A stretch of 64,000 nucleotides of DNA from Yuukianura sp. NJ FZ-2021 (GCA_046563655.1 CM102286.1:9424001-9488000), one strand, 5' to 3'. Positions 1,090-22,345 are shown, numbered from the stretch's first letter. A program made the numbers and translations. Notes: generated by a model not told the origin, from the sequence alone.

Positions 1090-1141
1090 GACGGTTACTG
1101 CCGAAAGCCTGGACCCAGACTAACACTACTTCACATTCAAC

Positions 1142-4100
1142 ATGGCGGAAGTCCTCTCACTCGTCCTTAAGCGAACAGCCCAGAAGCACAAACTGGCGAA
1201 AATCCTAAGGGACGTAAGTAACGTCGACTCACCGCCTACACAGTTTGAACTCCACAAACTGCTGGATCAAACTGAAAAGATCGAAGGTACTGTTCAATCC
1301 ATTCAAAACGAAATTCTAACGTACATGTCTAATGAAGAGGATTTAATTCCTCAACTTGAAGCTTCAGAACAGATTGATGACATGATTGTTAAGATCCATG
1401 GTCTTATCAATGGAGAGTTAGCGAAGCTGGACTCCAACACCCAGAGTGGATCCACCCTAACCTCTGCTCCGTCAGTCGTTCATCCATCGTCAAAGGTCAA
1501 GTTACCTAAGCTTGACCTTCCTACTTTCTCTGGCAGTTACGAAGACTGGCCATCCTTCCGAGATCAATTCGAGGCTTCCATCGTCAACAATGGTGGTTTG
1601 TCTGGTTGCGAAAAGCTGCAGTATCTAAAGTCATCTCTCAAGGACGATGCACTAAAGATAGTCTCGCCATTCGTAATCACTAATGCTAATTTTCAGGATG
1701 CTTGGGATTTGTGTATCGAGCGATACAACAACACGCGCGAGATCGCATTTTCATTGTTGCGAAAATTGTTTAATCTCTCTAAACTGTTTCAGGAAAATGC
1801 GACTTCACTGAGGAACCTGGTTGATACTTTCGACCAGTGCGTGAGACAGTTGCGGAACCTTAACCGTAACGTTGACCAATGGGATGATGTTCTGGTCTTT
1901 ACCATAATGGAAAAGTTGGATCCTGACACAAAACGGGAATTCGCCATCCAACTGTCAGGAACGAACGTTCCTACTTACAAGGAGGTCAAGGACTTTCTTG
2001 AACAACATATCCGTGGTCTCCAGAGCATCTCATCAGCGTCAACGAGACAACCTCAGAAGTCGTCTGACCGTAAGAAGGTCCATGCAGTGAACACTGCAAA
2101 ATGCGTTCTTTGCTCAGAGCCACACCCACTATTCAAATGTGGAAAGTTCAATGCCATGACCATTGCTCAACGGATGGACACTGCCAAGGCTCAGCATCGA
2201 TGCTTCAATTGTCTTGGTCTTGCTCATACTCCCAAGAACTGTCATTCCAAGTCTCGTTGTCGTGTGTGTCAGAAGCCACATCACACTCTTTTGCATATTA
2301 ACAATGACTTCGTTCCCTTTGCAAATCAGGTAAATAATCCTAATGCTCATGTGACTAATCCTTCTACTTCTGTTCCCACAGCCAGTTGTAATCACAACTC
2401 CGGCCATGGGGTCCTACTTGGAACTGCAGAAGTCTACGTAATGGATGCTACTGGAGCCTACCAAACCTGTCGTGTCCTTCTGGATCCAGGAGCTGAGGTT
2501 TCCTTTAGCACCGATCGGTGCTGTCAGCGACTTGGTCTCTCACAGACAAAGTCCAACGTCACCATCAACGGAGTTGGTGCTACTACAGTTGGTAAAGCAA
2601 AGGGAAAAACAATGTTGAAAATCAAATCTATGTGTAATGATTTTACGTTGTCGGTGGAAGCTCTTGTTCTCTCCCAGGTCACAGGTCAACTGCCCTCCTT
2701 TAGGTGCGGTGACACCTGGAAGGAATGGACCCACCTACAAAATCTGACCTTGGCTGACCCCAGATACATTGACCCAAGAGAAGTCGACATTCTCCTTGGG
2801 GCTGAGGTCACACACCGGATCTTCACTGGTCAGACGCTTTCTTCTCGGGTTGATCAACCCGCTGCTTGCTCGAGCCACTTCGGTTGGGTGGTCATGGGAC
2901 CTGTCCATACTCCACCAGTGCAGTCGTACACGGCCCACTGCCACACAGTCTCTCTGGATGGAGCCATCCAACGCTTGTGGGAACTCGATCACGTCCCAAC
3001 TCGGATGCAGTTGACACAGGAAGAGAGTGACGCAGAGAACCACTTTACAACTCACCACTCTCGTACACAGGATGGAAGATACATTGTTCCACTTCCTTTC
3101 AAACCCAACATTTTGGAACTCGGATCATCACGATCAATCGCATTACGGAGACTCCACCACACTGAACGTCGGCTGGATAAACTCCCGCAGCACAAAAGTG
3201 AGTACGTAAAGTTCATGACTGATTATCTAACTTTAGGTCATATGGAACAAGTCCCACCATCGGAAGAAGGAGAACGATTCAAGGATGGATCCATCCAAAC
3301 GTACTACCTCCCACATCACTTCGTTTTGAAGGAGGATAGTACAACAACCAAACTTCGTGTGGTTTTTGATGGTTCGTGTGAATCAAATTCAGGTTTGTCA
3401 CTGAATAAGTGCCTAATGGTAGGGCCAACTATTCAACCTGATTTATTTACACATCTAATCAAATTCCGATTGGATCCAATTGTTCTAAAGGCTGACATAA
3501 CAAAAATGTATCGCCAGTTCTCAGTTTTAAATTCTGACTCCAACTTCCAGCGGATCCTATGGCGGCCAACTCCTGATCAGCCTATTCGGGAGTACAGGCT
3601 CAAAACAATCACTTATGGAACCTCCTCGGCTCCATTCGGTGCCATTCGGGCCCTCAACCAACTTGATGTGGACGAAGGAGATCACTTTCCCTTGGCCAGG
3701 CAAGCAATAATTGAGCGTTTTTATGTAGATGATTATTTAGGTGGTGACTCATCAGTTCCAAAAGTGGTGGAAACTTACCACCAATTGACCAGACTACTCG
3801 CTCGTGGACAACTGTCAATCACGAAGTGGACTTCAAACTCTCCAGAAGTCCTAAAGGAGATTCCTTCACACCTAGTGGAGATCTCCACTCAATCACTGGC
3901 GGAGGGATCAAGCACAAAGGCATTGGGCGTTCAATGGACTCCAAATTCTGATCTCCTCCATTTCACTGGATTTAGGTTTGACCAAACCTCGGTAATAACA
4001 AAACGTACCATTTTGAGTGACATCGCAAAGTTATTTGATCCATTGGGGCTACTCGCTCCATTCGTCGTTTCGGTAAAAGTCTTCTTTCAGAGTCTTTGGG

Positions 4101-6268
4101 CCTTGGGAATTGGTTGGGATGACAACCTGCCCGAGGACATGGTAGAAAGGTGGACCCACCTTGGCTCATCATTGTCATGTCTTGGTGACATTGCCATTCC
4201 ACGTTGTGTGATTATACCAAATTACCAACGAATGGAATTACATGGATTTTCGGATGCCTCCGAAAGAGCCTATTGTGCCGTGGTCTACCTCAGGACATTT
4301 AACAACAATCTACCAATATGCCGACTTCTGACTTCCAAAACTAAAGTAGCGCCTGTCAAGGCACAGAGCATACCGAGGCTCGAACTTTGTGGTGCTTTGT
4401 TATTATCGAAACTAATTTCTTTTCTTTTGTCTAGTTTGGATCCAAACTGTCACGTCTACTGTTGGACTGACAGTGAAATTACTTTGCGGTGGATCTCGTC
4501 TTCTTCTCGTCGCTGGGTCCCATTCGTGGCCAATCGGGTTTCGCAAATCCAAGAGCTCACACCAGTCGAATCTTGGCATTTCATCCCTGGGACACTCAAC
4601 CCTGCCGATTGCGGAACAAGAGGGATCCCTCTTAATGAGCTCGTCGACAATCAGCTCTGGTGGAACGGACCGGAGTTTCTGTCACAACTTCAATTACCTT
4701 CGTTCTCCAATTCACAAACACTCTCATCTGAGCATCTCAAGGAGGAACGTAAGGTCAAGGTCCTAACTGTTCAAGTGTCTTTTCCCATTCTGAACAGGTA
4801 CTCGTCATTTCTGCAACTCCTTCGTGTCATCGGGTCACTTCTCGTGTTCATGCTTAGAGCTAAGCAGAAGTCGGCACCGATGCTACGATCAGTCGAGTTT
4901 TACCGAATGGCTACTCAGAAGGTCATTCAACTGGCACAACAGGAACACTTCCAAGAGGACGTTCAGTCACTGACTAAAAATGGTAAAGTCAAACAGTCCA
5001 GTTCGTTGCTGTCGCTTTCTCCATTTTTGGATTCGGACGGATCTCTTCGTGTTGGTGGTCGGCTCCACCTGGCATCGCTCCCAGAAGCTGCCAAACACCC
5101 TCTGATCATTCACGGGAAGTCATCAGTCACCAAACTACTCGTCCAGCATTACCACCACAAGCATCATCATGCTGGGAATCGTCTTCTGCTCTCACTTCTC
5201 CGCCAGGACTATTGGATTGTCCACGCACGAGATTTGATCAAATCTGTCATCTCTCGCTGCCTCAGATGTAAGCTGTTGAGACAAAAGACGGCAACACAAC
5301 TCATGGGTACACTGCCTCAACCAAGAGTCACGATGTCACCTACGTTTCATCACACTGGTTTGGACTACGCTGGTCCATTTACACTCCAATCTGTCAAAGG
5401 ACGAGGTCAGAAACAATTTAAAGGCTACTTCTGCATCTTCATTTGCCTCTCCACGAAAGCCGTTCATGTGGAATTCGGAACCGAACTATCCACCGAATCC
5501 TTCCTCGCGACTTTCAAACGGTTTGTGTCACGTCGGGGTAACCCACTACATTTGTATTCTGATTGTGGTACCAATTTTGTAGGTGCTAATAACGAGTTGA
5601 TGGATTTGGTGAACTCTCACCAGTTCAACTCGGAAGTTTCTTCTTACTTTGCAGAGTCACAAACCCACTGGCATTTCAATCCTCCGTCTGCTCCTCATCA
5701 TGGTGGAATCTGGGAGGCAGCAGTACGTTCTGTTAAATTCCATTTGAAGAGGATCATTGGGACCACCACTTTAACGCTTGAGGAATTTGCTACAATTCTT
5801 TGCCAAGCGGAAGCAGCGCTGAACTCCCGACCTCTTCTACCGATGTCCAGTGACACATCCGATTTAGGTGTGATCACACCTGGCCATTTCCTCGTCGGCA
5901 GACCTCTCCTCGCCGCTCCTCAACCAGATCATGCTGATGTCAAGGTCAATCGCCTCTCACGTTGGCAGTTGCAGGAGAAGCTATTCCAAACGTTCTGGAA
6001 GGTCTGGTCTCTCGAATACCTCACATCCCTTCAACAACGAGTCAAGTGGACCAAGAAAACCAACAATTTGACAATCGGAGATCTCGTGGCCATCAAAGAT
6101 GACAATTTACCCCCTCTAAAGTGGAAACTGGCTCGCGTCATCAACGTTCATCCTGGTCCAGACGGACTAGTCAGAGTCGTCACTCTTCGTACGGCCCTCG
6201 GAGAACTTCAACGCCCAATTGTCAAAGTGGTTCCACTTTTATCTAACGACGAGTTATCTACAACTTAA
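1142..6268 (+). CDS. gag-pol: BEL/Pao Gag-Pol polyprotein (Gag with 3 Cys/His knuckles, aspartic protease, RT, RNase H, integrase)
   Basis: KLPKLDLPTFSG Gag motif; CxxC/H knuckles (CVLCSEPHPLFKC, CFNCLGLAHTPKNC, CRVCQKPHHTLLH); protease LLDPG; RT YLPHH...KLRVVFD...YVDD; RNase H GFSDAS...IPRLEL...DS...NPAD; integrase DYAGP/SDCGTNF/GIWE. Domain order is that of BEL/Pao. Confidence 0.97.
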   Translation: MAEVLSLVLKRTAQKHKLAKILRDVSNVDSPPTQFELHKLLDQTEKIEGTVQSIQNEILTYMSNEEDLIPQLEASEQIDDMIVKIHGLINGELAKLDSNTQSGSTLTSAPSVVHPSSKVKLPKLDLPTFSGSYEDWPSFRDQFEASIVNNGGLSGCEKLQYLKSSLKDDALKIVSPFVITNANFQDAWDLCIERYNNTREIAFSLLRKLFNLSKLFQENATSLRNLVDTFDQCVRQLRNLNRNVDQWDDVLVFTIMEKLDPDTKREFAIQLSGTNVPTYKEVKDFLEQHIRGLQSISSASTRQPQKSSDRKKVHAVNTAKCVLCSEPHPLFKCGKFNAMTIAQRMDTAKAQHRCFNCLGLAHTPKNCHSKSRCRVCQKPHHTLLHINNDFVPFANQVNNPNAHVTNPSTSVPTASCNHNSGHGVLLGTAEVYVMDATGAYQTCRVLLDPGAEVSFSTDRCCQRLGLSQTKSNVTINGVGATTVGKAKGKTMLKIKSMCNDFTLSVEALVLSQVTGQLPSFRCGDTWKEWTHLQNLTLADPRYIDPREVDILLGAEVTHRIFTGQTLSSRVDQPAACSSHFGWVVMGPVHTPPVQSYTAHCHTVSLDGAIQRLWELDHVPTRMQLTQEESDAENHFTTHHSRTQDGRYIVPLPFKPNILELGSSRSIALRRLHHTERRLDKLPQHKSEYVKFMTDYLTLGHMEQVPPSEEGERFKDGSIQTYYLPHHFVLKEDSTTTKLRVVFDGSCESNSGLSLNKCLMVGPTIQPDLFTHLIKFRLDPIVLKADITKMYRQFSVLNSDSNFQRILWRPTPDQPIREYRLKTITYGTSSAPFGAIRALNQLDVDEGDHFPLARQAIIERFYVDDYLGGDSSVPKVVETYHQLTRLLARGQLSITKWTSNSPEVLKEIPSHLVEISTQSLAEGSSTKALGVQWTPNSDLLHFTGFRFDQTSVITKRTILSDIAKLFDPLGLLAPFVVSVKVFFQSLWALGIGWDDNLPEDMVERWTHLGSSLSCLGDIAIPRCVIIPNYQRMELHGFSDASERAYCAVVYLRTFNNNLPICRLLTSKTKVAPVKAQSIPRLELCGALLLSKLISFLLSSLDPNCHVYCWTDSEITLRWISSSSRRWVPFVANRVSQIQELTPVESWHFIPGTLNPADCGTRGIPLNELVDNQLWWNGPEFLSQLQLPSFSNSQTLSSEHLKEERKVKVLTVQVSFPILNRYSSFLQLLRVIGSLLVFMLRAKQKSAPMLRSVEFYRMATQKVIQLAQQEHFQEDVQSLTKNGKVKQSSSLLSLSPFLDSDGSLRVGGRLHLASLPEAAKHPLIIHGKSSVTKLLVQHYHHKHHHAGNRLLLSLLRQDYWIVHARDLIKSVISRCLRCKLLRQKTATQLMGTLPQPRVTMSPTFHHTGLDYAGPFTLQSVKGRGQKQFKGYFCIFICLSTKAVHVEFGTELSTESFLATFKRFVSRRGNPLHLYSDCGTNFVGANNELMDLVNSHQFNSEVSSYFAESQTHWHFNPPSAPHHGGIWEAAVRSVKFHLKRIIGTTTLTLEEFATILCQAEAALNSRPLLPMSSDTSDLGVITPGHFLVGRPLLAAPQPDHADVKVNRLSRWQLQEKLFQTFWKVWSLEYLTSLQQRVKWTKKTNNLTIGDLVAIKDDNLPPLKWKLARVINVHPGPDGLVRVVTLRTALGELQRPIVKVVPLLSNDELSTT

Positions 6269-7120: not shown

Positions 7121-7237
7121 CACCGGCTGCCCAAGTTTTATTCACCCCTCACTAAAATCTTTATTTACCTAAACACACTATGCCCCTACTAAACGTCCAA
7201 TGAACAAGAACCTCGCAAATCCAAACGTTTAAGAAAT

Positions 7238-8665
7238 TTGGAACCCAGCCCACAAGAACCTCTACCTAGCCGCAATATCCCAAAACCCAAAAGAACCAAT
7301 ATTATTATAAATATCCACACACCAGCGACTGTCGCCCCCCCTCTAACACCCTCTAAAACGGAATCCTCTGATTTATTTCAGACCCCCAACACGTCTCCTT
7401 CTCAACTTAATACCGATTCTACTGTTTTATCTCACACGTCACTAGAGGAAAGTAAATTTTTTTCAGACAACGATATAACTATAGTGGCTCGCAACCCCCC
7501 ACCCACGCCGATTGCTCCCCAGAGATTATCCCTAGTTTCACTGGATAGAATCCTAGACCAAGATATTTTTCCAACAGTCACAGTTAATCACAAAATTCAC
7601 ATACCCACAACCGAACCGAATACGTCAACAATGGCCACCACCAACGCACTTGTGACCATTCATGAGAAAATTGCTAAGTACACTGCAACATTACTATCTC
7701 GACAAGAGCTCGAGATTTTCCTCAATTTATTTGAGATATGGGCCCAACAAAAGAATCTTAGCGACCCGCAAGCCAAACTACAATTACAAATGGCTATCCC
7801 CCTCAAGGTCGCACAACAGTGGTTCGCGATTAACAAGAATCTTATCAATGACGCAACCACCTCCTGGGCTTTATACAAAACTACATTTTTAGAAGGATGC
7901 CCCACTGAGAATGGCGATGACGACTTGTCCTTCGCCGAAATCATCTCTAAATCTCAAGGTCACAAAGAAAAGGCGACTATTTTCATTCAAAAAATCCGAT
8001 ATTTTTTTGGGACCCAATGGGGGAACTACCCGGAGAAAGAAATTGTTAAAGGCATGGTTCATCAGTTGAACCTGAATACGCGGCGATATATCGAATGCCG
8101 CGGGGTCCCCGAGACATATGCCGAATTAATGCGGCAATTGCAGCAGTACGAAGCAAAAGGCGGGGTTCAAGACATTGATAATATTACCGTTAAAACGGAA
8201 ATACCAACACATCTTATACAAACTGACCAACTGAAAGAACTAGAAGAATCCATTAAAAACATGAGTATCCTCCTCACCCAAACACGTCCCGAACGGCAAC
8301 CCTATTTTCGAGGATTCCAAAGCGAACCCAACTACCCCCCACGGCCTAGAAACCTAAATCCGTGGTTTCGACAAAGTTTTCAACCCCGCTTTTTTACTCC
8401 CCGAACCACTCCACGCACCCAATACAGACTACAAGACTTACCGGATTTACAAGTTAATACGGCTAACGGTGCTCGCACTGTGGCTCGAACCTATCCACAA
8501 GGATCCCGGGGAAATGAACCTCGGCCAAAGTGCGGATATTGTGGACGCTTAGGACACATCACCGCTACATGTTATTTAGCAGCACGCCACCGCAACGGGC
8601 GCCCACCCGTGTTACACACATACTTCAGTGCAAGGACATTGTATGCCCTTGCACTGAGAGTGTGA
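7238..8665 (+). pseudogene. gag: Gypsy-type gag, truncated; no pol follows
   Basis: Pro/Ser/Thr-rich N-terminus, capsid-like helical core (AQQWF...WALYKTTFL) and CCHC knuckle CGYCGRLGHITATC. The likely start ATG (~7180) is out of frame. The last ~18 codons (from 8610) read into unrelated LTR-like DNA. Confidence 0.8.
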
Positions 8666-8697
8666 GTGTGTGTGAGTGGATCTATGAATAAACGACA
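8610..8697 (+). repeat. Truncated LTR-like fragment related to the 387-506 LTR
   Basis: Starts TGTTA; hairpin TCAGTGCAAGG...CCTTGCACTGA centred on CATTGTATG, the same core as in the first LTR; TGAATAAA at 8685-8692. Confidence 0.55.
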
Positions 8698-9190
8698 CAT
8701 TTATTGTGTGGTAAAACTACAACGGAGTGGGGGATGCATCTGATTTTCTCAAAAACCACACCTCCCAAAGAAACATGGTTTAGCCAGTAAAACTGAGATG
8801 GAAAGTTCCCATCTCAGTTCCATGTGCTAAACTAACATAACTAATTTTTTTGTCAAACCGCATTTTGCAAGGCCAGATTTGTTGACAATTTTTGTGTGGT
8901 AAAACTACAACGGAGTGGGGGATGCACTTGACTATGAAACTCAACATCTCCAGAGTCTCAACAAATTACTCAAAAAAAAGTTCAACTTTAGAAGCACTGA
9001 TTCCTGGCTAGAGACACATCAGGGTGGGAATGAGGAGTGTGAAATGCATCTGATTTTCTCAAAAACCACACCTCCCAAAAAACATGGTTTAGCCAGTAAA
9101 ACTGAGATGGAAAGGTCCCATCTCATTTCCACGGGCTAACCTAAGATTACTAATTTTTTGTCAAACAGCATTTTGTATTTGTTGACATTT
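8698..9190 (+). repeat. Left subterminal/TIR repeat block of the Polinton
   Basis: Two copies (the first internally deleted) of a ~310-bp unit that is the imperfect reverse complement of 26650-27250. Confidence 0.85.
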
Positions 9191-9255
9191 TTAACCGCAA
9201 ACTCTTTACTTGTGAGGAAACTTGTGAGGGGAGGTTGGGGTGTCATTTTTTAACA

Positions 9256-9282
9256 TATAAGAGCAACGAAACTGAATTCAGT
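9256..9282 (+). promoter_or_regulatory. Putative TATA + TCAGT initiator for the pPolB gene
   Basis: TATAA at 9256-9260 and TCAGT at 9278-9282, just upstream of ATGs at 9309 and 9327. Confidence 0.4.
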
Positions 9283-9326
9283 TGTTCAAATACCTTGAAC
9301 CAGTACACATGCAGGGGAGGAGAAAA

Positions 9327-12300
9327 ATGTCTGGTTTCAGTTCTAGTAGATTTTACTCTTGTGACAGATGCCAATTGCAAAATTTAGGTGCACAACAATT
9401 CTTACATCACGTCCAAACAACCCATCTGGACATTGAAATACCTGGTAAGCTTAAAACAATTGAGACAGAAATGCGCATTGTAATAAAAATTCTTGTTACA
9501 ATAGGTGAATTGTTAGAAGACATTCAAACTGAACATTATGATACCTCGGGAGCATTCGCTGGAAGACAGTACGGATGTGAAACATGTAACTTGAGGGGTC
9601 TTTCTGAACGAGATTTTATAAGTCACATTCAACAAGTCCATCCAAGTATTCAATTACCAGGTATTCGCAAATTAGCAATTCGAGAGCACAGCATGTTTTA
9701 TTTGTTGTTGGTTATTTTTAGGTCTCATTGCTGGTACAAGTAGTTCACGGTCGGTATCTGTACCACTTCAGCACCAGCCGACGGACGGTTAGGATGTCAT
9801 GATGATGAAATTTTTTTGTAAAAATAATCTTGTCTTTCAATTTAGAACGAGAAGCTGTTGCGTTGGAATTGAAGAATTACAAGAGACGATTTTGTGCGCA
9901 GTGTGGAATAAATTTTGAGTATCCTGGGCAGTTGGATGAGCACCAGTACAATACTCACCCAGAACTGTATCCTTCTGTTCAAAACCAACAGGGCGGAAGT
10001 GCTCCAGAGAATGAAGTACATTTCGATGAATTGAGTGCTTTCCGCGGTACCACTCGTGAGTATACCACAACGTTTGATGAAGATGTGTTTGTGGATGTGG
10101 CTGGTGTCTTTGCTCACTGTTCAGCAACTTTGCGGGAATTGATGAGAAGGACTCATGGGGAAATCGGGTCGTACTTGGTGAGCAGTGTTGCACTAGTAGA
10201 AATGACACGACAAGTTCATGGAAGTAACACTGAACAACAAGTCGAGGATTTTCCATTCCGTTCATTTACGCACATCACCTTAGAACCCAGAATGATTCAA
10301 AATACTCTTCGGCTTATGTCAAATAAAATTGGAGATACAATAGCCGTATTCTTGAGGAAGGGCTCTGGATGGCGTGTTAGTCGATTCAAATGGATTACAT
10401 TCAAATTTTCAGTGTACCGAATGCAGCGTGGAAATGGCTGGATTGCGACGCCTGCGCATATGACAAGGAAAGGATGTGTTGTGAACATTAGAAATTCTGA
10501 TGACCAGTGCTTCAAATATGCAATTTTGTCGGAGTTGTACCCGCTGTATAAGAATGAGTCTGCTCACTGGTATGAAATTACGGACCCCAGAAGCTACGAC
10601 AATTTTCCCCATTCAGTGGACTGGGATTGTATCCAGTTTCCCATGGATTTTGAGCAAATGGACAAGTTTTTACACTTTAACCCTAAACTTTCCGTGAATG
10701 TGTATGGCTATGAAGCTGTGGATGAACTAGATCCAAATTACGCAAAACAGAAAATGAAAGTGTTTCCGTTATATGTTTGTCGTGAAAAAAGACAAAAGCA
10801 CATTGATCTGTTGTTATTAATTGAAGGATGCAACTCGCATTTTGTTCTGCTAAAACAAACGGAGGACAATCCTTCGTTTGGTTTATCTCGTCTGTTGGGA
10901 AGAAATGAGCGCTGCAATGAAAAGTACATTTGCAACTTTTGTCTTCATTTTTGGAAGTCCAAGGCTACACTAGAAAGACATCAACTTTTTAGTTCCGCTG
11001 TGGAACCCCAGGGTGTATGCTTTCCACCAGAATTCAAGTATACATTCAAGCACATTCGTCACACACTTCCTGTGTCGTTTGTCATTTTCTGTGACTTTGA
11101 GTGCATTTTACGACAAGAAAGTGGAACAATGCGGATTGGAACTGTGCTCAATGAACACGTAGACTGTGGCTACTGTTTTGTCGTTGTAGGACCAACCGGT
11201 AGGATGTGCACTGAACCGTTGACGTTTTGTGGTCGAAACGCTGCTCAGCATTTACTAGAAGATTTGGTGAACATAACCGAACAATATTTTATAAAATTGA
11301 AGCAGGATGTTGGACGCGACCCATCATACACTGAAATTGATTTTTATAATATGAGAACAGCTGCCACGAATTGCAACCACTGTGGTGTTCAGTTTCAACA
11401 TGTGAGAGACACAGTAATTGACCACTGTCACCTCACGGGACGTATCAGAGGAGTGAGTTGTAACAACTGCAACATACAACTTCAAGTCACCAAAAAAATC
11501 CCCATCATTTTTCACAATTTTCGAAACTATGACTCTCACTTCATAGTTCAAGCGTTGAAAAGCAACTTGTTCAAACATGTTTTACCTCTACCTACGTCAG
11601 AAGAAAAGTTTACATCTGTGGAGTGTACAACTCATGCCGGAAATGCACTCAAGTTTGTAGACTCTTATCAGTTTATCAGTTCCAGCTTGGCAGACTTGGT
11701 GGAAATGATGGCGAAAAAGGATGTGAACAAGTTCCAAGTGACCAAAAGTGCTTTTCGTCATCATCCAAGAGCAATGACTTTTTTGCTTCAAAAGGGGGTC
11801 TACCCATACGAGTACATGGACAGTTTTGGAAGGATGGATGAGACTGGACCGCCAGGCAAGGAAGCATTCTACAGTGAATTGAGAGGGGAAGGAATTTCCG
11901 ACGAAGATTACGAAAGAGCACTGAAGGTGTGGGAAGAGTTTGGGTGTAGAACCTTGAGAGACTACCACAACCTTTATGTGAAGTTGGATGTTTGCTTGCT
12001 AGCCGATTGCTTCCAGGACTTGAGAGATACGATGATTACAAATTTCCGCTTAGACCCCGCTCATTACATCACCCTTCCAGGAATTGCATACGATGCTGCA
12101 ATGTTGATTGGAAGAGTCGATTATGACTACCTGAAAGTGGATGACATGTACATGTGGTGTGAGAGGGGAATTCGAGGTGGAAACTGTGCCGTAGGACTTC
12201 GATATGCCAAAGCAAACAACCCCTACATGGGAGCTCAATACGACCCCTCGAAACCAACCAGCTACCTGTGCTTGTTGGACGCAAATCTTTTGTACAGTAC

Positions 12301-13651
12301 ATGTTTGAGATGCTACGTTCCGTGGAAGAATTTCCGATGGGATCCAAGCTTCGAGGCACGAACCGCAGATTTGGAGAGTGCAGTTGCAAGAATTTTGAGG
12401 ATGGGAGATGAGGACAGAGAAGGGCTCATTTTGGAAGTGGACTTGGACTATCCGGATGAACTGCATGATCAGCACAATGACTATCCTCTGGCAGTAGAAC
12501 GAGGAATCATTGAATATGAAAACTTGTCCCCCTACACAAAAAACGTGATGGATAATTTGGGTGTTAGTCCGACCTCAGTCAACAAATCCAAACTGATGGG
12601 GACCTTTTACCCAAAGAAAAATTACATTATCCACTATAGACTGCTCAAGTTGTTTTTGCGGTTGGGGCTGAAGATGTCAAAAGTACATCGAGCGCTTCGA
12701 TTCACACAAGCGCCTCTTATGCGTCCCTACATTGAAATGTGCATCGAGAGAAGGAGAAGTGCCACAAATCCTGTTGATGTTAAGTTTTGGAAAGCGATGG
12801 GTAACATTGTGTTTGGGAAACTTTTACAAAATGTTCGAAAGCACAAGAGAATTAACATTGCGCTGACTCGTCAAAAAGTTTTCGAGTATGGAAAAAAACC
12901 AACTGTGAAACGTTTCAAAATTTTACACGAAGAGTGCGTTTTGTTCATGATGAAAAAGCTCTCAGTTTGCTTAAACAAACACATAAGTGCTGGACTAACA
13001 GTTTTGGATGATAGCAAACGAATCATGTACGATTTCTACTACAATGTGATGCAGAAAAAGTATGGAGAGAACATGAGGCTGGTTATGACGGACACGGACA
13101 GCCTCCTCTTGCATATCAAGACTCCAGTTCTCTACCAAGACTTTTACCAAATGACACAAGATCCAGATTGTCGACTTGACACTTCCAACTATGATCCCAA
13201 GCATCCGAAGGTTGGACACTTGTCTTCCCAGCAACATCAAAGAAAGTGCGGCTACTTCAAGGACGAATTTGCCAACTCAATTGTAACTGAGGTGGTTGCA
13301 CTCAAGCCAAAACTGTACTGTGTCCGCTCTCTTGACCAGAACAGCATCGTCTCGGATAGAAAAAAAGCCAAGGGAACGGTGAGAGCAGCGGTGAGAAATG
13401 AACTCCGTTTTGAAGACTATCTTTGTGTTTTGGACGAGTCATCTTCACTCAGCGTAAAAATGACAACAATTCGAAGCATGGACCACCGAGTGTACACTAC
13501 GACCGTATGTAAACAAAGCCTTTCCGCCTTTGAAGACAAGTCTGGCTACTACATTTCTCCAATTGAGTTTCTCCGATTTGGTCACTACCAAATCCCAATG
13601 TACCAACAACAAGAAGAAGAACAACAGGAACAAATGCAACAACAAGTTTAA
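9327..13651 (+). CDS. polB: Protein-primed family B DNA polymerase with a spliced N-terminal triple C2H2 zinc-finger leader; predicted exons 9327-9444, 9505-9660, 9722-9787, 9846-13651 (~1381 aa)
   Basis: ExoI DFE, ExoII HNFRNYD, ExoIII YVKLD; Pol motifs DANLLY, KAMGNIVFGK, TDTDS; endonuclease VII-like insert (CNHC...DHCHLTG...CNNCN). The large ORF has no ATG at its start, and three GT-AG phase-1 introns join the upstream exons in frame. Confidence 0.92.
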
Positions 13652-13742
13652 GTCCTAATATAAGCCAATTTAATAAATATTTAAATTTTAGTTTGAATTT
13701 GAACGTTTGACCAATAGCAAGTGTTTAAAAGTTGAATTAGAG

Positions 13743-14399
13743 ATGAGTTTTCATTTCGGGCTGAGTCATCCGTTTGTGATGGTTTGTGCAGGAGCCACGC
13801 AATCTGGAAAGAGTACATTAATTCATCAATTAATTTTGAGAAAGGATGAAGTGATTGAGCCTAAAATTGAGCGAGTAATCTACTGCTACGGCGAAGATTT
13901 GCCTTCGATTGCAAGTTCTGTGCATGAAGCTTTCAAGGACAAGGAGGACGTTTGTGTGGAATTTCAAAAGGGTATGGAGGTGGACGTGGTCGAGGGGAAC
14001 CGAGTTCCCACTCTCGTAATTCTCGACGACTTTATGGAAGAGATTGCAATGTCCAAGGAAGTTTGCACAATGGTGACACGAGGGAGTCATCATAGATCAA
14101 TGTCTCTAATCATTACAATGCAAAACTTTTTCTACAAAAACTGCAGAAACTTGACGTTAAACAGCAAATACTTGGCGTTATTTCGAAATCCAAGAGACTC
14201 TACAATTGTTCAGTTTCTGGGAAGACAGATGAACAATGGAAAAAGTCATCCCGTCCTTGAAGCTGCTTACGAGGATGCAACCAAAAACAAGCCAAACAGT
14301 TACTTGTTTTTGGACTTGAGTCAACAGCAGGATGACGAACACCGTTTCCGTTCAAATCTTTTTCCCGACCCGTCATGCATCGTCTATTTGAAAAAATAG
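13743..14399 (+). CDS. Polinton packaging ATPase (A32/FtsK-like)
   Basis: Walker A GATQSGKST, Walker B LVILDD, and RGSHH...ITMQN motif. Confidence 0.93.
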   Translation: MSFHFGLSHPFVMVCAGATQSGKSTLIHQLILRKDEVIEPKIERVIYCYGEDLPSIASSVHEAFKDKEDVCVEFQKGMEVDVVEGNRVPTLVILDDFMEEIAMSKEVCTMVTRGSHHRSMSLIITMQNFFYKNCRNLTLNSKYLALFRNPRDSTIVQFLGRQMNNGKSHPVLEAAYEDATKNKPNSYLFLDLSQQQDDEHRFRSNLFPDPSCIVYLKK

Positions 14400-14960: not shown

Positions 14961-15893
14961 TTAGGAATGAAGAACTTTCTGGAGTTCCGGATCATAAAAT
15001 ACACCAAATATGAACTCTCCTTTCAAATCCTGAAGCTGATAGCTGATTGGAGTAGTATAAAAAACTTTGGAAACCTTGAACTGCTCTCGATTCCAAGACC
15101 TAGAGTAGCCTTTTTCAAAGATTTTCTTGATTTTACTAATTAGAACAGTGTCCCCAACGGAAAATTTCGTCTTTTTACGACGTTTCACGACTCTGTCATT
15201 GTAGAGATTTAGAAAAACGTCAGTTTTCGTTTCTTCGTTGACTTGATTTGGTGTGCATTTGATGGATGAGTGGTATGAATTGTTGTAATTCTCAACGATC
15301 GCAGCCAGGACGTCGTAAAATTTTTCTGTGCCCTTGTATGTCATGTAACGAGCAATTCTATTCATAAGAGTCTGATTGAATCTCTCTACAATGACCGCCT
15401 TCAACTCGGATCCTGTACTGAACATGTGGATTCCATGCTGTTTGAGTAGCTTCTCCAGAGTTTTGTTGATGAATTCTTTGCCCCGGTCTACTTGTAAGTA
15501 TTTGCAAGGTCCTCGCTTCTCAATAATCTTTGCCAAAGCATTCCTTACAGTGGGTGCATTTTTGTTTTTCAGAGGGATTGCATCCGCAACTTTACTAAAC
15601 CCATTGATGCAAGTCAACAAGAACTTGTATCCGTTGTTTGAGTCGCTATACTTGCTTACGTCAATCAAATCTGCAACCATTTGTTGCTTGAGTCCAGGAA
15701 TGAATACTCTTCTCCTAGGATATCTTTTTCGAGCGCGTTTGTGCAGAGTATAAGCAGGGATGGAAGAGAGTGACCGCTCGACATCCTTTGAATGATTTTT
15801 CAAACTTTTTTTAACTTGATGTGCACCCGAAAAGCTATGTTGGACATTTGGATTTACGTAATTCTCTTTGATTTGTTTGTCTAGCTCTGACAT
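14961..15893 (-). CDS. int: Retroviral-like (rve) DDE integrase of the Polinton
   Basis: YTLHK motif; catalytic ADLID / VDRGKEF / VERFN; YNNSYHSSI; C-terminal F.VGD.V.IS...FEKGY...W. No chromodomain visible. Confidence 0.95.
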   Translation of the reverse strand: MSELDKQIKENYVNPNVQHSFSGAHQVKKSLKNHSKDVERSLSSIPAYTLHKRARKRYPRRRVFIPGLKQQMVADLIDVSKYSDSNNGYKFLLTCINGFSKVADAIPLKNKNAPTVRNALAKIIEKRGPCKYLQVDRGKEFINKTLEKLLKQHGIHMFSTGSELKAVIVERFNQTLMNRIARYMTYKGTEKFYDVLAAIVENYNNSYHSSIKCTPNQVNEETKTDVFLNLYNDRVVKRRKKTKFSVGDTVLISKIKKIFEKGYSRSWNREQFKVSKVFYTTPISYQLQDLKGEFIFGVFYDPELQKVLHS

Positions 15894-15995
15894 ATTTACG
15901 ACTAAGTCAAAAAACCTCAAGCGTCATGGTCTTATTTGTGGGGCAGCTTCTTGAAGGAAAAGGTTCATTGACGCCCAACTCTTTGGCTGGTCAAC

Positions 15996-16361
15996 ATGTC
16001 CAAGTGTGTAGCGCAAAACCGAGAATTTTTGAGCTATTTGTCCAAAGCAACGTCACCAAAGCAGCGGCGAGAATTGATTAAAAACGCAAGCAGAGGAAAT
16101 TCAAGGCATTTGTGAATGTATACTCAACGTATACAAAGGGAACGTGAGCGTCAAGGCAAGCACTGTGAAACGTCTCAAACCCTTCAAGAGAACAATTCTA
16201 GCTCTAATCAAGGGGCGACGCAGGTCGAGTCTCAAGTTTAAGAAAAACGACTGTTGTGTCAAAGGGGGGGAGCGATACTACCTCTTTTGTTGGGAGCTGT
16301 ACTACCGTCTTTAGTTAGTACTGCCGTAGGATTTTTCAAAAAGAAAACTCAACCACAATGA
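15996..16361 (+). pseudogene. Conserved small basic Polinton protein with two frameshifts
   Basis: Reconstructs as MSKCVAQN...KNA/AEEIQGICECILNVYKGN...LKFKK/RLLCQRGGAILPLLLGAVLP...*, with frameshifts near 16090 and 16245. The stop overlaps the next ATG (ATGA). Not in the ORF track. Confidence 0.7.
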
Positions 16362-17365
16362 AACGGATGAGATTAGTCAACGAAACAGATTTTCAAAAAA
16401 TTCAGCAACTGCAACATACTAATTTTGCTGGAAATTACGCATCTCTTTCTCCTGCGGCTGCTGAGTTGGATCCAAAACAAAGCATTTTGTCAAATTCAAA
16501 CATTCCAGATGACATAAAAGCCATATTATATCAAGATTTGGCCCGTCGTCTCCATCAAAAACGTCAAATTTTGGAATCCAAACCAGTTTTGGTGAAAAAT
16601 GTTGGTGGTAGCAACGACCATGAACATGAGGGATTTCAACAAGACGACAATGAATCAAATTTATTATACGGTACTCAACTTGGAGATAGTTTAATTTCCA
16701 ACCCCAGCATCAGAGTTGAGAATCTTCTAGATGTTACTGAACCATACATTTTGGAGCAACTGAAGGGGAGTAAAAATGCAAGAAAACTTTTGCATCTGAT
16801 GCGCTACAATGATATTGTTTGGAATGAAAAGTTTGAAGTTTTGATTCAAAAGCAACGTCTACCAGGCTCTGACATTGTAAGCATTCTACAATATTTCATA
16901 AACCTCAAGGATCGAAAACATATTCGAGCTCCCGAAGGATTCATACAAGTCCGAGACCAATTGCAGAGGTACATTTCTCCAAAAACTTCAGATGCATCTG
17001 CTCCAAACTCTGGAATATCACGCCTAATCACTTCCCCAGCAATATTTTTTGACCAAAGACAACAACAACAACAAGAGCAGAACCCGGCGGGATCAAATTA
17101 TAATACACCAAGTGCTAGCCAGAATGAAAGAATAACCGATGAAGAGGATGAGGAGGAAGAGGTCGAAGACGTTTTTGAACAAAACCCCCAACCGCCATTT
17201 CAAATTCATCGTCCCTCACCTACTCGACCTAAAGCTACACCTATTGCAAAGAGACTTGTAAGGAGAGCTGCTAATCCAACTGGAAAAGATGTATTCCGAA
17301 GAGGAGGGACCAAGAGTCAAAAAGGGGGAGGAGGAGGAGGAGTCTGTCGTTGGGAAAAGTTTTGA
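16358..17365 (+). CDS. Conserved Polinton protein of unknown function (335 aa)
   Basis: WN...E......LPGSDI..L......PEGF motif of the kind seen in Polinton conserved ORFs; acidic/basic low-complexity tail ending W-x-x-F. Confidence 0.75.
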   Translation: MKRMRLVNETDFQKIQQLQHTNFAGNYASLSPAAAELDPKQSILSNSNIPDDIKAILYQDLARRLHQKRQILESKPVLVKNVGGSNDHEHEGFQQDDNESNLLYGTQLGDSLISNPSIRVENLLDVTEPYILEQLKGSKNARKLLHLMRYNDIVWNEKFEVLIQKQRLPGSDIVSILQYFINLKDRKHIRAPEGFIQVRDQLQRYISPKTSDASAPNSGISRLITSPAIFFDQRQQQQQEQNPAGSNYNTPSASQNERITDEEDEEEEVEDVFEQNPQPPFQIHRPSPTRPKATPIAKRLVRRAANPTGKDVFRRGGTKSQKGGGGGGVCRWEKF

Positions 17366-17464: not shown

Positions 17465-17730
17465 TTAAGGATTCGTGCTCTGCGATTCAGTTTATTCGTG
17501 CTTTTGCTTCTTTTGGATCAACACAAACTGTTGAGAAAAGATTTTTTGGATTCGTGCCAACCATACTTGTGGATTCGAGCTTACAAATCTACTCATCCCT
17601 GCCTACGTTTTTTTTTGGATTTGAGGTACGTATATTTAGATTAAAAGGATTCGTGCTAGCAATTTAAAAGGATTCGTGCTTTACATATTTATGGATTCGT
17701 GCTTTCATTTAAAAGGATTCGTGCTTTGAC
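17465..17730 (+). repeat. Cluster of ~8 GGATTCGTGCT motifs upstream of the capsid module
   Basis: Motif or 1-mismatch variants near 17469, 17494, 17548, 17571, 17647, 17670, 17693 and 17716; the last four have ~23-bp periodicity. Confidence 0.8.
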
Positions 17731-17736
17731 GGCAAG

Positions 17737-18675
17737 ATGATGACTGCAACTGGTTCGAGTACATCCAACTCTTTCTACGTAACACTTCAATCGAATGCTT
17801 CGATGGACTATTTTCCAGGCAATCTAATTTGTGATTTCAAGAATAAATTGGCAAGTTCCATCAGTCTGCCTGGAGATCAATTGGAGGTGGCCCTGACCGA
17901 CTTGAGCTATACTTATGGAAACGCGTTTGTCGGAGCAGGAAGAACAATTTTTACGAAACGGGTCCAGTTGCCACCACCATCTTTCGTCGCTGCCCCAACA
18001 GGTGCAGAGACAGTCGCTGCTGCTGTACATGATTTGGATATGAATGACAAGAGCATTTCGTTTCGAGAAAGACAGCGTCGCTCTGCTAATCAGCGTGCAT
18101 TTTCACCTCCAAAAGTTTTGGAAATTCCAATGAAAACACACCGACGTTTGATGACTGACACTCAACTGTTGAGTTTTCTGCACGATATGCTACCCAACTC
18201 TCAGTGTCGAATCGAATCTAGCATTTTCAAGTATCGCATACCCTTGAAGGAGGGAACGACAATCAAGTTTTCTCCACAAGTAGCCGACATTCTGGGGATG
18301 GGTGGAGGAGAATTGCAGATTGCGAACCAAATCGTCCGAGGAGCCCTACCTGCAGATGGATTCTCTCTATACGAAGGAGAAGGCGCTTATCCAGTCTTTT
18401 TGAATGCTGGACAAACAAAACTTTTCGTCTACTGCAACCTAATCCGGCCTCAATTCATTGGAGATGCTCTTGCACCAATTCTTCGAGTGGTCAACTATGA
18501 GGGAAAATTTCGAAAACAACACTCTCATGAATTCACTCATGCACACTACATGCAGCTGGCCGTCTCTCAATTTGATACGATTCATTTGTATATAATGAAC
18601 GAGGCGGGGGAGAGAATGCCATTCGAGTTTGGTAACCTCACCGCTACACTTCGTTTTCGTGAACGCAAGACATGA
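17737..18675 (+). CDS. Polinton minor capsid (penton-like) protein
   Basis: N-terminal FYVTL.SN.S...FP.N...F...L...EVAL and C-terminal LFVYCNLI..Q..GD...P.LR...Y......FDTI......G...PF......TL.F motifs. Confidence 0.85.
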   Translation: MMTATGSSTSNSFYVTLQSNASMDYFPGNLICDFKNKLASSISLPGDQLEVALTDLSYTYGNAFVGAGRTIFTKRVQLPPPSFVAAPTGAETVAAAVHDLDMNDKSISFRERQRRSANQRAFSPPKVLEIPMKTHRRLMTDTQLLSFLHDMLPNSQCRIESSIFKYRIPLKEGTTIKFSPQVADILGMGGGELQIANQIVRGALPADGFSLYEGEGAYPVFLNAGQTKLFVYCNLIRPQFIGDALAPILRVVNYEGKFRKQHSHEFTHAHYMQLAVSQFDTIHLYIMNEAGERMPFEFGNLTATLRFRERKT

Positions 18676-19282
18676 GGTCATCGGCTGGACTCTCGTCCCT
18701 ACCTTACAATTGTGCTGGAGACTTTCCTGCAGATGCATTTTTTTCACAAAATCAATTTGGTAGTGGGTTTTCCCCAACTACAATCTACTTTAGTGGGGTT
18801 CGTCGTCAAAAAGGTTAAAAAAAGCAAATAAAAATTTAAAAATGTAATAATTTTGAAAATGCTGGTTTTTGGAGTTTGGTCGTATCAATTATTCAATTTT
18901 ATGTGACCCGTCAGGGGCTGGTCTTGGAGGAGTTTTTGGTGCAATTGCACGGCAACTTTTTCCATTTCTTAAGCAGTACGTACTGCCACATGCGGCGGAT
19001 GCCGTAGGAGGTGTCGCCTCGGACTTAATTTTGAACAAAAGACCAATCAAGGAATCTCTGAAATCGCACGGCTGGGAAGCACTTAAGAGTATGGGTAGGG
19101 ATGTTATGAATCAGACGGGTTCGGGCATTCGAGGTGTGAGGTCAAGGAAGCGACGCATCAAACGACGAGGAAAACCAGCATACGGTCCAAAGCGAAAAAA
19201 GTCAAGGAAGGTTAGGAGCAAAAACAAGCGGCGTCGTACAAAGAGTCGTAAGAGAGTCGGTGGTACGAGGTACATTTTCTAA
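18672..19282 (+). CDS. Polinton core-like basic protein, spliced (exons 18672-18813 and 18915-19282; ~169 aa)
   Basis: ATG overlaps the penton stop (ATGA). A 101-bp AT-rich GT-AG intron restores F.G..RQKG/AGLGG.F...R..P.LK; three QxGxG motifs and an Arg/Lys-rich tail. Confidence 0.78.
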
Positions 19283-19283
19283 A

Positions 19284-20633
19284 ATGCCACGCGTAAAAAC
19301 AACAAAAGGGTACGGTGGAACATCATCAGGGCCGGCTGCGCCATACACTTTTATCCGTTCAGAAACAAATTTGTTTGAAGAACCTGCCTTTGATGTCAGC
19401 CTTTTGTCTACAATTCAAACCGAATATCATCCAATTACATCTCTGGCGGACAGTTTGGCACCCGTCGAATTTTATATTCAAGGAAATGATACACATTTTT
19501 TGGACTTGTCCGAGACAAAGTTGTACGTCAAGGCAAGAATTGTTGCTGAAAATGGATCTGCTCTGACGGCGGAGGAACTTGTCGCACCTGCAAACAATTT
19601 TCTCCATACCCTGTTTCAGCAACTCAGCGTTTATTTCAACGAGACTCTCATCACACCATCCTCAAATCAATACGCTTACCGAAGTTACCTTGAAACTCTA
19701 CTCGGCTACAACAAGGAATTCAAAAAGTCGCAAGCACAGGGTTCTCTATACTACAAGGATAAGGATCCCAGCAACAAGAGCACAACAGTGGAGGATGGTT
19801 ATAAAACTCGATTCGATTTGACAAAGGGAAGCAAAAGTGTGGAATTGATTGGGCGTCCATTTGGAGACATTTTCGCACAAAACAAATTCCTAATTCCTGG
19901 CATTGATGTTCGCATCAGCTTCTTACGATCCTCTCCTGCATTTTGTTTAATTGCTGACAAAGCAGATGGAAGGTATCAAGTTCAAATTTCTGAGGCAAGA
20001 ATCATTGTTCAAAAGCATACTCTTCTTCCCTCACTCGTGACGTCAATCCTCAAAGAGTGGGAGCTGGGGCGATCAATTACATATCCTCTTCGTCGGGTGG
20101 AACTCAAAACCTACACGATTGGACCTGGGAGTTTGCAAAGCATAAATGAAAATCTGCTGAGTGGGCTCCTTCCAGACAGAATAATTGTTGGACTTTTGGA
20201 ATCGGAAGACTACATGGGAACAATCACCACGAATCCCTACAACTTTTCACACTTTGACTTCAACCATCTCAACGTAACTGTCAAAGGAGATCAAAGTTCA
20301 TCTCTGGCTATGCATTTGGATTGGGAAGGGGATCAGTACATACAGCTCTACAACAATCTTTTTTATGGACTTGGAATGTCCAACGAAGATGTCGGAATTG
20401 ACATGACCAGAGCCGAGTACAAGAAACAACCTTTGATGATTTACAACTTGCGTCATGTCCGCGAAGGCTTTGCACCTCCAAAACATGGAAATGTGAAAAT
20501 TGAGTTGAAATTCAAAAAGGCTGTGGCCAAGGCTATTACTGTGATGGTCTATGCCGAATACCAGGCAGTTCTCTACATTGACTCGAGCAAGAACGTCTTT
20601 TGGAAAGATTACAGCACCACCAGCACCGGTTAG
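19284..20633 (+). CDS. Polinton major capsid protein (double jelly-roll type)
   Basis: SE..LF, YHP....P.EF.I.G....LDL..T.L, NNFLH.LF.Q, Y.YR.Y.ETLL.Y, LPDRI...G motifs; ~449 aa; located before the protease. Confidence 0.9.
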   Translation: MPRVKTTKGYGGTSSGPAAPYTFIRSETNLFEEPAFDVSLLSTIQTEYHPITSLADSLAPVEFYIQGNDTHFLDLSETKLYVKARIVAENGSALTAEELVAPANNFLHTLFQQLSVYFNETLITPSSNQYAYRSYLETLLGYNKEFKKSQAQGSLYYKDKDPSNKSTTVEDGYKTRFDLTKGSKSVELIGRPFGDIFAQNKFLIPGIDVRISFLRSSPAFCLIADKADGRYQVQISEARIIVQKHTLLPSLVTSILKEWELGRSITYPLRRVELKTYTIGPGSLQSINENLLSGLLPDRIIVGLLESEDYMGTITTNPYNFSHFDFNHLNVTVKGDQSSSLAMHLDWEGDQYIQLYNNLFYGLGMSNEDVGIDMTRAEYKKQPLMIYNLRHVREGFAPPKHGNVKIELKFKKAVAKAITVMVYAEYQAVLYIDSSKNVFWKDYSTTSTG

Positions 20634-20638
20634 AGACG

Positions 20639-21166
20639 ATGGAGACGCGACAAATTTTCACCTACCTGTCATCATTTTTGAAGCCAACGCAGGCCACGTT
20701 TCGAGTCATTCCGTGTGACTATTTGGATCACCTTGAGGTTGAACGTTATCCTCTGCTGCTAGTTGTCAATTCGGATCCATCCACATCTCCTGGAAGTCAT
20801 TGGTTGGCCCTGTTTCGAGAAAATTCCAAAGCTCCCCTCAAATTCATCGACTCGTACGGGATGGGAGTAGAGTTTTACGACAAGGCCTTTTCCAACTTTG
20901 CATCTCGGCTCCAGACTTCAATTGTGGAAAACATCCGGACTCTTCAAAGCCCAAACTCTCAAGTGTGTGGAGAATATGCAATCTATTTTCTATACAAGCT
21001 TTACCACACTTGCTGTCTAATGTCCATCTACTGCAACTTCCATTCCAATTCCAAAAGAAATGATATGCTAGTTAGACAATTTGTAAGAAAAAAGCTTAGG
21101 AGACTCTCAAAAAACTCTTCTCCCTCCTCATCTAACCTTAATCAATGCTGTACTCCATTCAGTTAA
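20639..21166 (+). CDS. Adenain-like cysteine protease
   Basis: N.D.....G.HW, F.DSYG, Q.....CG.Y motifs (His-Asp-Gln-Cys). Confidence 0.92.
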   Translation: METRQIFTYLSSFLKPTQATFRVIPCDYLDHLEVERYPLLLVVNSDPSTSPGSHWLALFRENSKAPLKFIDSYGMGVEFYDKAFSNFASRLQTSIVENIRTLQSPNSQVCGEYAIYFLYKLYHTCCLMSIYCNFHSNSKRNDMLVRQFVRKKLRRLSKNSSPSSSNLNQCCTPFS

Positions 21167-21370
21167 AAAAAACAAATAAAATTTCCAAAATCCAATTCTC
21201 TTTTTCGTTCCGAATCAAGTAAAAAGATTAAAATTTTATTTTAACCACCAAGTGAAAAGAGAGAGAGGGAGTTTTAGTCGTGTGGGACGTGTTCCAGCTC
21301 CTGGTTGAAGGTTTCAATGCCTCTGAGACAAGTCTCCAGAGTCGTCTTGAGGGTTGCCACTTGTTCCGAC

Positions 21371-22162: not shown

Positions 22163-22345
22163 GTTCCGACCCTCCTCCAGTTGTCCTCAAGTAAAAGGTT
22201 GAGAGTCGACGCAAAACGTACGGGACGGAGCTGACCTCAAAGTTGACCGTGTGCTTGTTTCGGCGAAAGTAGACCCAGTGGTACATCTTCCCCTTGTACA
22301 TGGTCTCCCTGCTGAAAACCGACAACCGCTTGTCCTCATCAAAAG

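Follow-up and report, generated by a model that had tools for sequence, protein, structure and literature searches.

A mobile element at about 8.7-27.2 kb of a 64,000-nucleotide stretch of DNA from Yuukianura sp. NJ FZ-2021 (GCA_046563655.1 CM102286.1:9424001-9488000; hereafter the window, with positions counted from its first letter) carries a gene for a DNA polymerase, PolB, which extends over 9327-13651 on the plus strand. Its product is a canonical PolB with a terminal-protein (TP) and a vOTU domain, ahead of which lies a leader of zinc fingers that is most probably assembled by splicing. The long exon that encodes the polymerase body (9846-13651, including the stop codon) is, as far as can be read from the sequence, without a usable start codon of its own, and splicing from the finger exons upstream would be the most economical source of one. 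A splice of some kind into 9846, which brings in the start at 9327, appears likely, and the form of the gene with three introns is, on the evidence given below, somewhat favored.

The first-pass annotation had described the polB open reading frame (ORF) as lacking an ATG start and as being joined to a triple-finger leader by three introns of about 60 bp, and the sequence features behind both descriptions were confirmed. In the proposed gene model, exon 1 (9327-9444, 118 nt, plus strand, as are all parts of the gene) provides the start codon and finger 1 (9360-9425) and ends in phase 1, while exon 2 (9505-9660, 156 nt), a paralogue of exon 1, carries finger 2 (9576-9641). A proposed exon 3 (9722-9787, 66 nt), which would encode a Ser-rich linker and is the least certain part of the model, is followed by exon 4 (9846-13651), the protein-primed PolB body. 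The proposed introns between them are intron 1 (9445-9504, 60 nt, GTAAGC..ATAG), the frame-shifting intron 2 (9661-9721, 61 nt, GTATTC..TTTAG) and intron 3 (9788-9845, 58 nt, GTTAGG..TTTAG). Their coordinates and ends were verified, and the joined frame, which opens with the ATG at 9327, has 1381 codons and one terminal stop, with every junction in phase 1.

The PolB frame is open from 9809 and is closed upstream by three tandem TGA codons. Its first ATG is codon 112, at 10142-10144, and there is no ATG in this frame from 9809 to 10142. In the element's remaining main ORFs, the first Met comes at most 20 codons after the frame opens, except for a 497-codon ORF (Met at 48). Related loci were also counted: among 100 loci, 60 had an upstream stop in the locus and a match from query residue 220 or earlier, and five of these, with fewer than 20 codons before the match, were set aside. 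A Met lies within 30 codons in 48 of the 55 loci counted, further in in four, and is lacking in three. Upstream of PolB, the unspliced leader frame is open from 9327 until the stop at 9741-9743, and the middle frame, that of exon 3, is open only over 9676-9789. As the leader, middle and PolB frames share no overlap, a ribosomal frameshift cannot join them, and this explanation was rejected. The ATGs at 9799, 9802 and 9805 were also rejected as the PolB start; they open only a 39-codon frame that is out of phase with PolB. An (ATG)n microsatellite (9794-9808) lies in proposed intron 3 and reads as TGA TGA TGA in the PolB frame.

With its first ATG at 10142, PolB would start inside a folded domain. 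The first 451 residues of exon 4 were folded with AlphaFold2 (AF2) from a 45-sequence alignment, with a mean predicted local distance difference test score (pLDDT) of 79.7. The structure prediction recommended at first pass succeeded in part: TP and OTU folds were found in the N terminus of exon 4, whereas the model of the leader, built from a single sequence, reached a mean pLDDT of only 43.3. The TP-like domain (model residues 57-192, 10016-10423, plus strand; Foldseek probability 0.99-1.0; pLDDT 86-96) matches the little-finger/PAD-like fold of 2r8j (Z 9.5, 107 aligned residues, root-mean-square deviation (rmsd) 2.6) and 4ir1 (Z 8.7, 98 aligned, rmsd 2.7), and the same resemblance has been given for the TP domain of Polinton PolBs (PMC11161782). 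The ATG at 10142-10144 corresponds to model residue 99, within helix 84-106 and 42 residues inside the TP fold. According to the model, a start at this position would remove finger 3 and one third of the priming domain; the TP-like fold would lose its first two strands and one half of a helix.

The remaining domains are those of a protein-primed polymerase. A vOTU-like cysteine protease domain (model residues 200-343, 10445-10876, plus strand) matches OTU structures at Z 6.9-5.0 (for example, 8c83, 3phu and 4bop); these values are middling, yet many independent OTU entries were matched. Its C221 and H331 are invariant in 45/45 aligned sequences, and the predicted protease is active-looking. 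Between the first exonuclease motif and the rest of PolB, an HNH/Endonuclease VII-like insert is placed (11354-11485, plus strand; PF02945, 35.4 bits vs a cut-off of 23.6), in which the Cys/His/Asn columns are invariant in 12/12 aligned PolBs. A precomputed Pfam match for this module is present in 10 of the 17 PolB homologues, and one paper reports HNH domains in Polinton PolBs of the other class, pPolB2, only. The rest of the exonuclease and the polymerase part occupy 11495-13648 (plus strand), where the alignment with 11 homologues reaches the C terminus, and every invariant column of alignment A1 is kept in the window PolB. In Pfam terms, the long frame 9809-13651 (1280 codons) contains DNA_pol_B_2, just above its cut-off (25.9 bits vs 25.8, over 11495-12205), and Endonuclease_7. 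Among 4278 candidates, 17 homologues were found at E <= 1e-5; the closest, P0001, is an 824-residue fragment that is 44% identical, and the others are 23-33% identical and include a PolB named for a dragonfly adintovirus. The Pfam matches, homologues and alignment motifs bear out the earlier assignment to a Polinton-type polymerase, the PolB being of Polinton/adintovirus type, and the enzyme is a canonical TP-vOTU-Exo-Palm protein-primed PolB.

The leader was recognized by its zinc fingers. Six-frame translation of window positions 1-27400 gave exactly three matches to the pattern C..C.{12}H.{4}H, at 9360, 9576 and 9893, all on the plus strand and within 600 nt, with a mean of 0.02 matches in 200 block shuffles. 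The three fingers described at first pass are thus present in the joined translation, and each fits the C-x2-C-x12-H-x3-5-H ligand spacing with H-x4-H. No C2H2 family of Pfam exceeded its curated cut-off (best, zf-C2H2_ZNF462, 20.8 bits vs 27; no family for finger 3 alone), and therefore the fingers are named C2H2-like only. All three were modelled as beta-beta-alpha, but with pLDDT of only about 55-64. The best, weak match of finger 2 is to fingers of the Di19/KCMF1 type (KCMF1 chains 9hyf_C and 9qx1_C, E 0.013-0.015; Pfam zf-Di19, E 0.0056), with all scores below curated cut-offs and no function transferable. Finger 3 (9893-9958, plus strand), found by the same pattern, lies inside the main ORF (AF2 residues 14-36, beta-beta-alpha, pLDDT about 57-64); it and the following stretch are conserved in P0001. 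Apart from the ligands, finger 3 showed no significant resemblance to fingers 1 and 2.

In contrast, the peptides of exons 1 and 2 resemble each other along an ungapped alignment with 14/38 identical residues (E 2e-10), which reaches the last residue of each exon, and both end in I-x-(I/L)-P-G. At the nucleotide level, the exon ends together with the first GTA of each interval agree at 13/16 positions. The homology ends at both donors, and exons 1 and 2 are paralogues that arose by duplication of a single finger unit with a phase-1 donor at its end. The exon duplication that had been suggested from the shared exon ends alone is thereby strengthened. The same suggestion had been extended to the addition of the whole leader by exon shuffling, of which only this duplication stands; finger 3 is part of the main ORF and is common to P0001, and related PolBs carry one to four fingers, or Rho_N, without introns.

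Additional observations are consistent with introns between the finger exons. The leader is coding sequence by the number of its fingers, by the paralogy of exons 1 and 2 and by the codon usage of these two exons: exon 1 scores best in the proposed frame (0.083 vs -0.033 and -0.479), and the in-frame score of exon 2, 0.177, is one that PolB windows also reach (0.203 +/- 0.095). The three proposed introns are the minima of G + C content (GC) in the region (0.283, 0.328 and 0.241, respectively), compared to 0.38-0.55 in the exons and 0.38-0.39 in those flanking intron 1, and only 1.1% of the 60-nt windows of exon 4 have a GC of <=0.30.

Several other observations, however, weigh against splicing as proposed. 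A splice-signal scan, in which intervals of 50-75 nt were judged by GC, donor consensus, pyrimidine tract and AG exclusion, returned 19 candidates in 54.8 kb vs 21.9 +/- 4.9 in composition-preserving shuffles, no better than chance, and clusters of at least three intron candidates occurred in 46/200 shuffles; the scan was crude, with thresholds set after the data had been seen. Donors 2 and 3 fit the consensus at only four of seven positions. A fit in frame is also cheap, with 13 in-phase GT donors and three in-phase AG acceptors. For exon 3, codon usage gives no signal, whichever frame is read (-0.189), and the read-through frames of introns 2 and 3 score like exon 1; codon usage could not tell introns from exons at such lengths. 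Intron 1 is a multiple of three and stop-free, hence potentially coding. In sibling copies of the element, the intron parts show no gaps, unlike relaxed intron sequence, although only about one to two events would be expected. Finally, the leader is carried by no protein of two very large libraries: the leader ORF had no match among proteins of similar length and only 11 weak multi-finger matches among 1.84 billion representatives. Searches for the N-terminal 251 residues of exon 4 gave no matching fragment of 138-440 residues, and scans seeded with an alignment of the window and P0001 gave nothing in viral or metagenome contigs.

Part of this evidence concerns the pattern of splicing rather than its occurrence. 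As exon 3 is without coding signal, intron 1 is a multiple of three and the internal exons are phase-symmetric, several splice patterns are possible: the same gene could be expressed through a single intron of 185 nt (9661-9845), with intron 1 retained as coding sequence (which would add 20 residues), or as several isoforms. All junctions are in phase 1 and every exon is symmetric (phase 1-1), so that any combination of exons stays in frame, and the acceptor at 9845 is compatible with either donor, 9444 or 9660. However, exon 3 forms a peak of GC (0.545) flanked by two minima, has no open frame other than the one that is needed, and covers a block (9705-9771) that remains alignable in a diverged sibling contig, and intron 1 has the best of the three donors (five of seven positions of the consensus) in addition to its low GC. 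We regard another splice pattern of the same gene as a minor, though real, possibility, and retain the three-intron form as the probable one. A 19-nt stretch near the 3' end of intron 1 resembles one within intron 3.

Sibling copies of the element were examined in four coded runs from two coded organisms, which were kept as contigs and are presumably DNA. The element is highly repeated in these runs, with copies 80-99% alike, and in run X4 the depth rises from 2.16 in the bin 9157-9313 to 153.4 in the bin 9314-9470; one X4 contig is alignable from 9324, three bases ahead of the ATG at 9327. A second in-frame ATG is present at 9309 in the window copy, which has one G more at 9314-9317 than every sibling contig. 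All contigs covering 9314 are without one base there, which puts the ATG at 9309 out of frame in the siblings, and therefore 9327 is the conserved start; in the siblings, a short upstream ORF that overlaps the main start would begin at the ATG at 9309. Contigs that are 5.7-15.8% diverged are colinear and gap-free from exon 2 into exon 4. In a diverged X4 contig, the block 9705-9771, mostly exon 3, aligns and both of its flanks do not; the resulting joints, 9618>9705 and 9771>9850, were considered as splice junctions and rejected, as they are alignment breaks in diverged sequence. The proposed exon borders showed no joints in the four runs, as expected for DNA. Some sibling contigs (X1, X2, X4) have an ATG insertion (3 nt) after 9798, and the (ATG)n tract is accordingly length-polymorphic.

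The sibling copies also bear on a different explanation, namely that the PolB gene of this element family is defective, its start having been lost, that the GT..AG intervals arose by chance, and that the element is a decaying provirus mobilised in trans. Such decay would be in keeping with the 96% of vertebrate Maverick loci that are described as degraded (PMC8097293), with a splice-signal scan that does not go beyond chance and with the 3/55 related loci that also lack a Met upstream of the homologous part. However, the frame of 1280 codons is intact and keeps all invariant A1 columns, the leader is found, equally colinear, in numerous diverged copies from the runs of both coded organisms, the frame is closed upstream by three tandem TGA codons and not by a single lesion, and the finger exons retain their zinc ligands and their paralogy. 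A defective gene is therefore, in our estimation, very improbable.

Another hypothesis is that the leader is a gene of its own, encoding a two-finger protein of 138 residues that ends at 9741, and that PolB is made independently, its start being a non-AUG codon, the internal ATG at 10142 or one provided by an exon outside the region studied. The unspliced frame is indeed open from 9327 to 9741, and its position recalls the adintovirus "Oncoid" ORFs, which are small, zinc-binding, have paired CXXC motifs and are typically found upstream of PolB (PMC8502044, in which zinc is mentioned only for these ORFs). As with the Oncoid ORFs, the window leader lies directly upstream of PolB on the same strand, but it has C2H2-like fingers instead of paired CXXC, has neither LxCxE (none in the leader translation) nor a CR1-like motif, and could be fused in frame with PolB. 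Separate ORFs that encode zinc fingers also precede PolB in relatives, which likewise speaks against a fused leader: in the related viral contig L002, eight C2H2 fingers are encoded at 2014-2690, 0.9-1.5 kb upstream of a PolB with its own Met, on the same strand and in another frame, and this array could be either a separate zinc-finger gene or further upstream exons. For the window gene, in contrast, no ATG is available between 9809 and 10142, a start at 10142 would delete finger 3 and part of the TP-like fold, the leader is without LxCxE, and the last 27 residues of the small protein would come from read-through of the AT-rich intron 2. A separate gene is thus decidedly unlikely as the whole explanation, and a small protein from unspliced RNA and a fusion from spliced RNA could both be made, as they are not mutually exclusive.

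The fusion of small modules to the priming domain is found in relatives of this polymerase as well. Related locus L100 encodes four Pfam-significant C2H2 fingers, and L082 two, in the same ORF as PolB; P0004 and P0001 have one N-terminal finger each. A Rho_N (SAP-like) module lies ahead of the TP domain at the PolB N terminus in 7/55 loci (L009, L012, L027, L028, L046, L053, L081; five above the cut-off) and is duplicated in L027. A 2C_adapt domain precedes TP in 2/55 loci, one of them above the cut-off, and L005 has a single sub-threshold NDT80_PhoG match before TP; in 43/55 related loci, nothing recognizable was found before the TP domain. All modules in related PolBs are within uninterrupted ORFs. 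As the related PolBs have varied N-terminal modules in one ORF, the leader represents a variable family trait: it is a variable, exchangeable module on the priming domain and not peculiar to the window element. Like the window PolB, L100, L082, P0004, P0001 and the Rho_N PolBs of L012, L027, L028, L053 and L081 (30-44% identical) have small modules of DNA-binding type before TP. They differ, however, in having one continuous ORF with its own Met, whereas the window gene appears to be split, and what would be special to the window element is the interruption of its leader by introns. The fingers of L100 and those of the window did not match significantly (E 0.45); as they are not detectably related, finger leaders may have been gained more than once.

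In human adenovirus, the replication genes Pol and pTP take their ATG from a short upstream exon that they share. A term look-up in PMC7851563 did not find this arrangement. In a turkey siadenovirus, pTP is a two-exon ORF, and the start codon of IVa2 is formed across a junction (PMC11304566); in fowl adenovirus 4, upstream exons add 30 N-terminal residues to pTP and 95 to DBP (PMC9962806). The replication genes of adenoviruses (E2B pTP and Pol, IVa2, DBP), whose mRNAs are spliced, therefore resemble the arrangement proposed here in that upstream exons supply or extend the N terminus, and adenoviruses descend from Polintons (PMC11161782). In contrast, the adenoviral introns are long and the donated pieces contain no folded domain, whereas the introns proposed in the window are about 60 nt and each of the donated exons 1 and 2 encodes a zinc finger. 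That Polinton genes are usually intronless, as noted in the first-pass annotation, agrees with the literature for core genes: those of intact Mavericks are described as intronless (PMC8097293), and a nematode Maverick likewise has an intronless core, with introns only in its cargo genes (bioRxiv 10.1101/2022.07.12.499685). In Polinton-like proviruses of dinoflagellates, introns are linked to introner transposons (PMC12166617). Compared to the TP-vOTU PolBs of PMC11161782, the window PolB has the same little-finger fold of TP, OTU fold with Cys and His, and exonuclease/polymerase motifs, in an element that also has an rve integrase and terminal inverted repeats (TIRs); it differs by the three-finger leader, the apparent mini-introns and the lack of an ATG of its own, and the word zinc occurs 0 times in that paper. 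No description of finger leaders on such PolBs was found in the main texts of the literature searched.

The element that carries the gene is bounded by inverted repeats with internal repetition: the left TIR, internally repetitive, is at 8697-9159 and is 91-96% complementary to the right TIR at 26650-27249. As the homologue set includes an adintovirus PolB, the element belongs with the adintovirus/Polinton-like proviruses, and it is, as its gene content indicates, an integrated provirus of this kind bounded by TIRs. It contains a retrovirus-like rve integrase (PF00665, 44.1 bits vs 32.6; ORF 14961-15923, minus strand). Two further ORFs gave only sub-threshold Pfam matches: ORF 13692-14399 has matches of FtsK-like packaging-ATPase type (Adeno_IVa2, 17 vs 21; Pox_A32, 16.8 vs 22.8; FtsK, 16.4 vs 24) and ORF 20582-21166 a match to Peptidase_C5, the adenovirus protease (17.9 vs 21.3). 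As to the double and single jelly-roll capsid genes of such elements, the Pfam scan gave no significant family in ORFs 16319-17365, 17713-18675 and 19140-20633. The last of these has its first Met at codon 49, and between it and ORF 17713-18675 there is an interval (18844-18914, plus strand) that is intron-like by crude criteria. An F-box gene (24056-25653, minus strand; PF00646, 26 bits) is split in two, its ORFs lying in different frames with an overlap of 55 nt. Either a frameshift or an intron would account for the split, and a search for a short intron joining both ORFs gave many weak GT-AG candidates and no clear one. The element also contains an internal inverted repeat (21368-23135) with arms of 557 nt (21609-22165 and 22343-22899) that are 97% complementary.

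Outside the element, a complete-looking Pao/BEL retrotransposon polyprotein (1714 codons, 1124-6268) lies to the left, followed by a 490-codon ORF (7193-8665) without a Pfam family between it and the left TIR. The right end is adjoined by a satellite array (27401-41930) of 79.5 copies of a 183-nt unit, and a second array (41930-62659) has 42.5 copies of a 487-nt unit. A reverse-transcriptase fragment is found at the end of the window (63093-63998).

For the expression of the polymerase, the following course is proposed. Transcription would probably start just inside the left TIR, where a candidate core promoter was read from the sequence (9256-9283, plus strand); it consists of TATAAGAG at 9256-9263 and TCAGTT at 9278-9283, which may be a TATA and an initiator element. 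Two or three mini-introns, each about 60 nt long, would then be removed by the host spliceosome. In this way the exon with the ATG and finger 1 and the duplicated finger 2 exon would be joined in frame to the polymerase, probably via the short linker exon, giving a ZnFx3-TP-vOTU-PolB of 1381 residues. The vOTU of Polintons has been proposed to cut between TP and vOTU (PMC11161782); as the fingers precede the TP domain, they would stay with TP after such a cut. A role of the fingers as a tether to DNA or chromatin, or in finding the origin for the priming protein, may be envisaged. Both the binding of nucleic acid by the fingers and a control of polymerase expression by splicing, as put forward at first pass, are inferences. 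In a further form of this proposal, which we consider unlikely, alternative splicing would act as a switch: unspliced RNA would yield the free two-finger protein of 138 residues and other isoforms a TP/polymerase with one, two or three fingers, and after vOTU cleavage the fingers would tether the genome-capping TP to the TIR origins or to host chromatin.

Gene finders that rely on uninterrupted ORFs would place the start of this polymerase at an internal Met and miss a portion of the priming domain. If the leader is indeed spliced, the replicase of such elements can require the host spliceosome, as in the related adenoviruses, and short exons can duplicate within a viral core gene. The N terminus of TP would then be a docking place for swappable small modules of DNA-binding type, C2H2 fingers in the window element, L100 and L082 and Rho_N elsewhere, which offers a hypothesis, open to test, for the way in which the priming protein locates the ends of the genome. 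If the proposed switch were also true, replication would be controlled by the host spliceosome in a group that is regarded as having intronless core genes.

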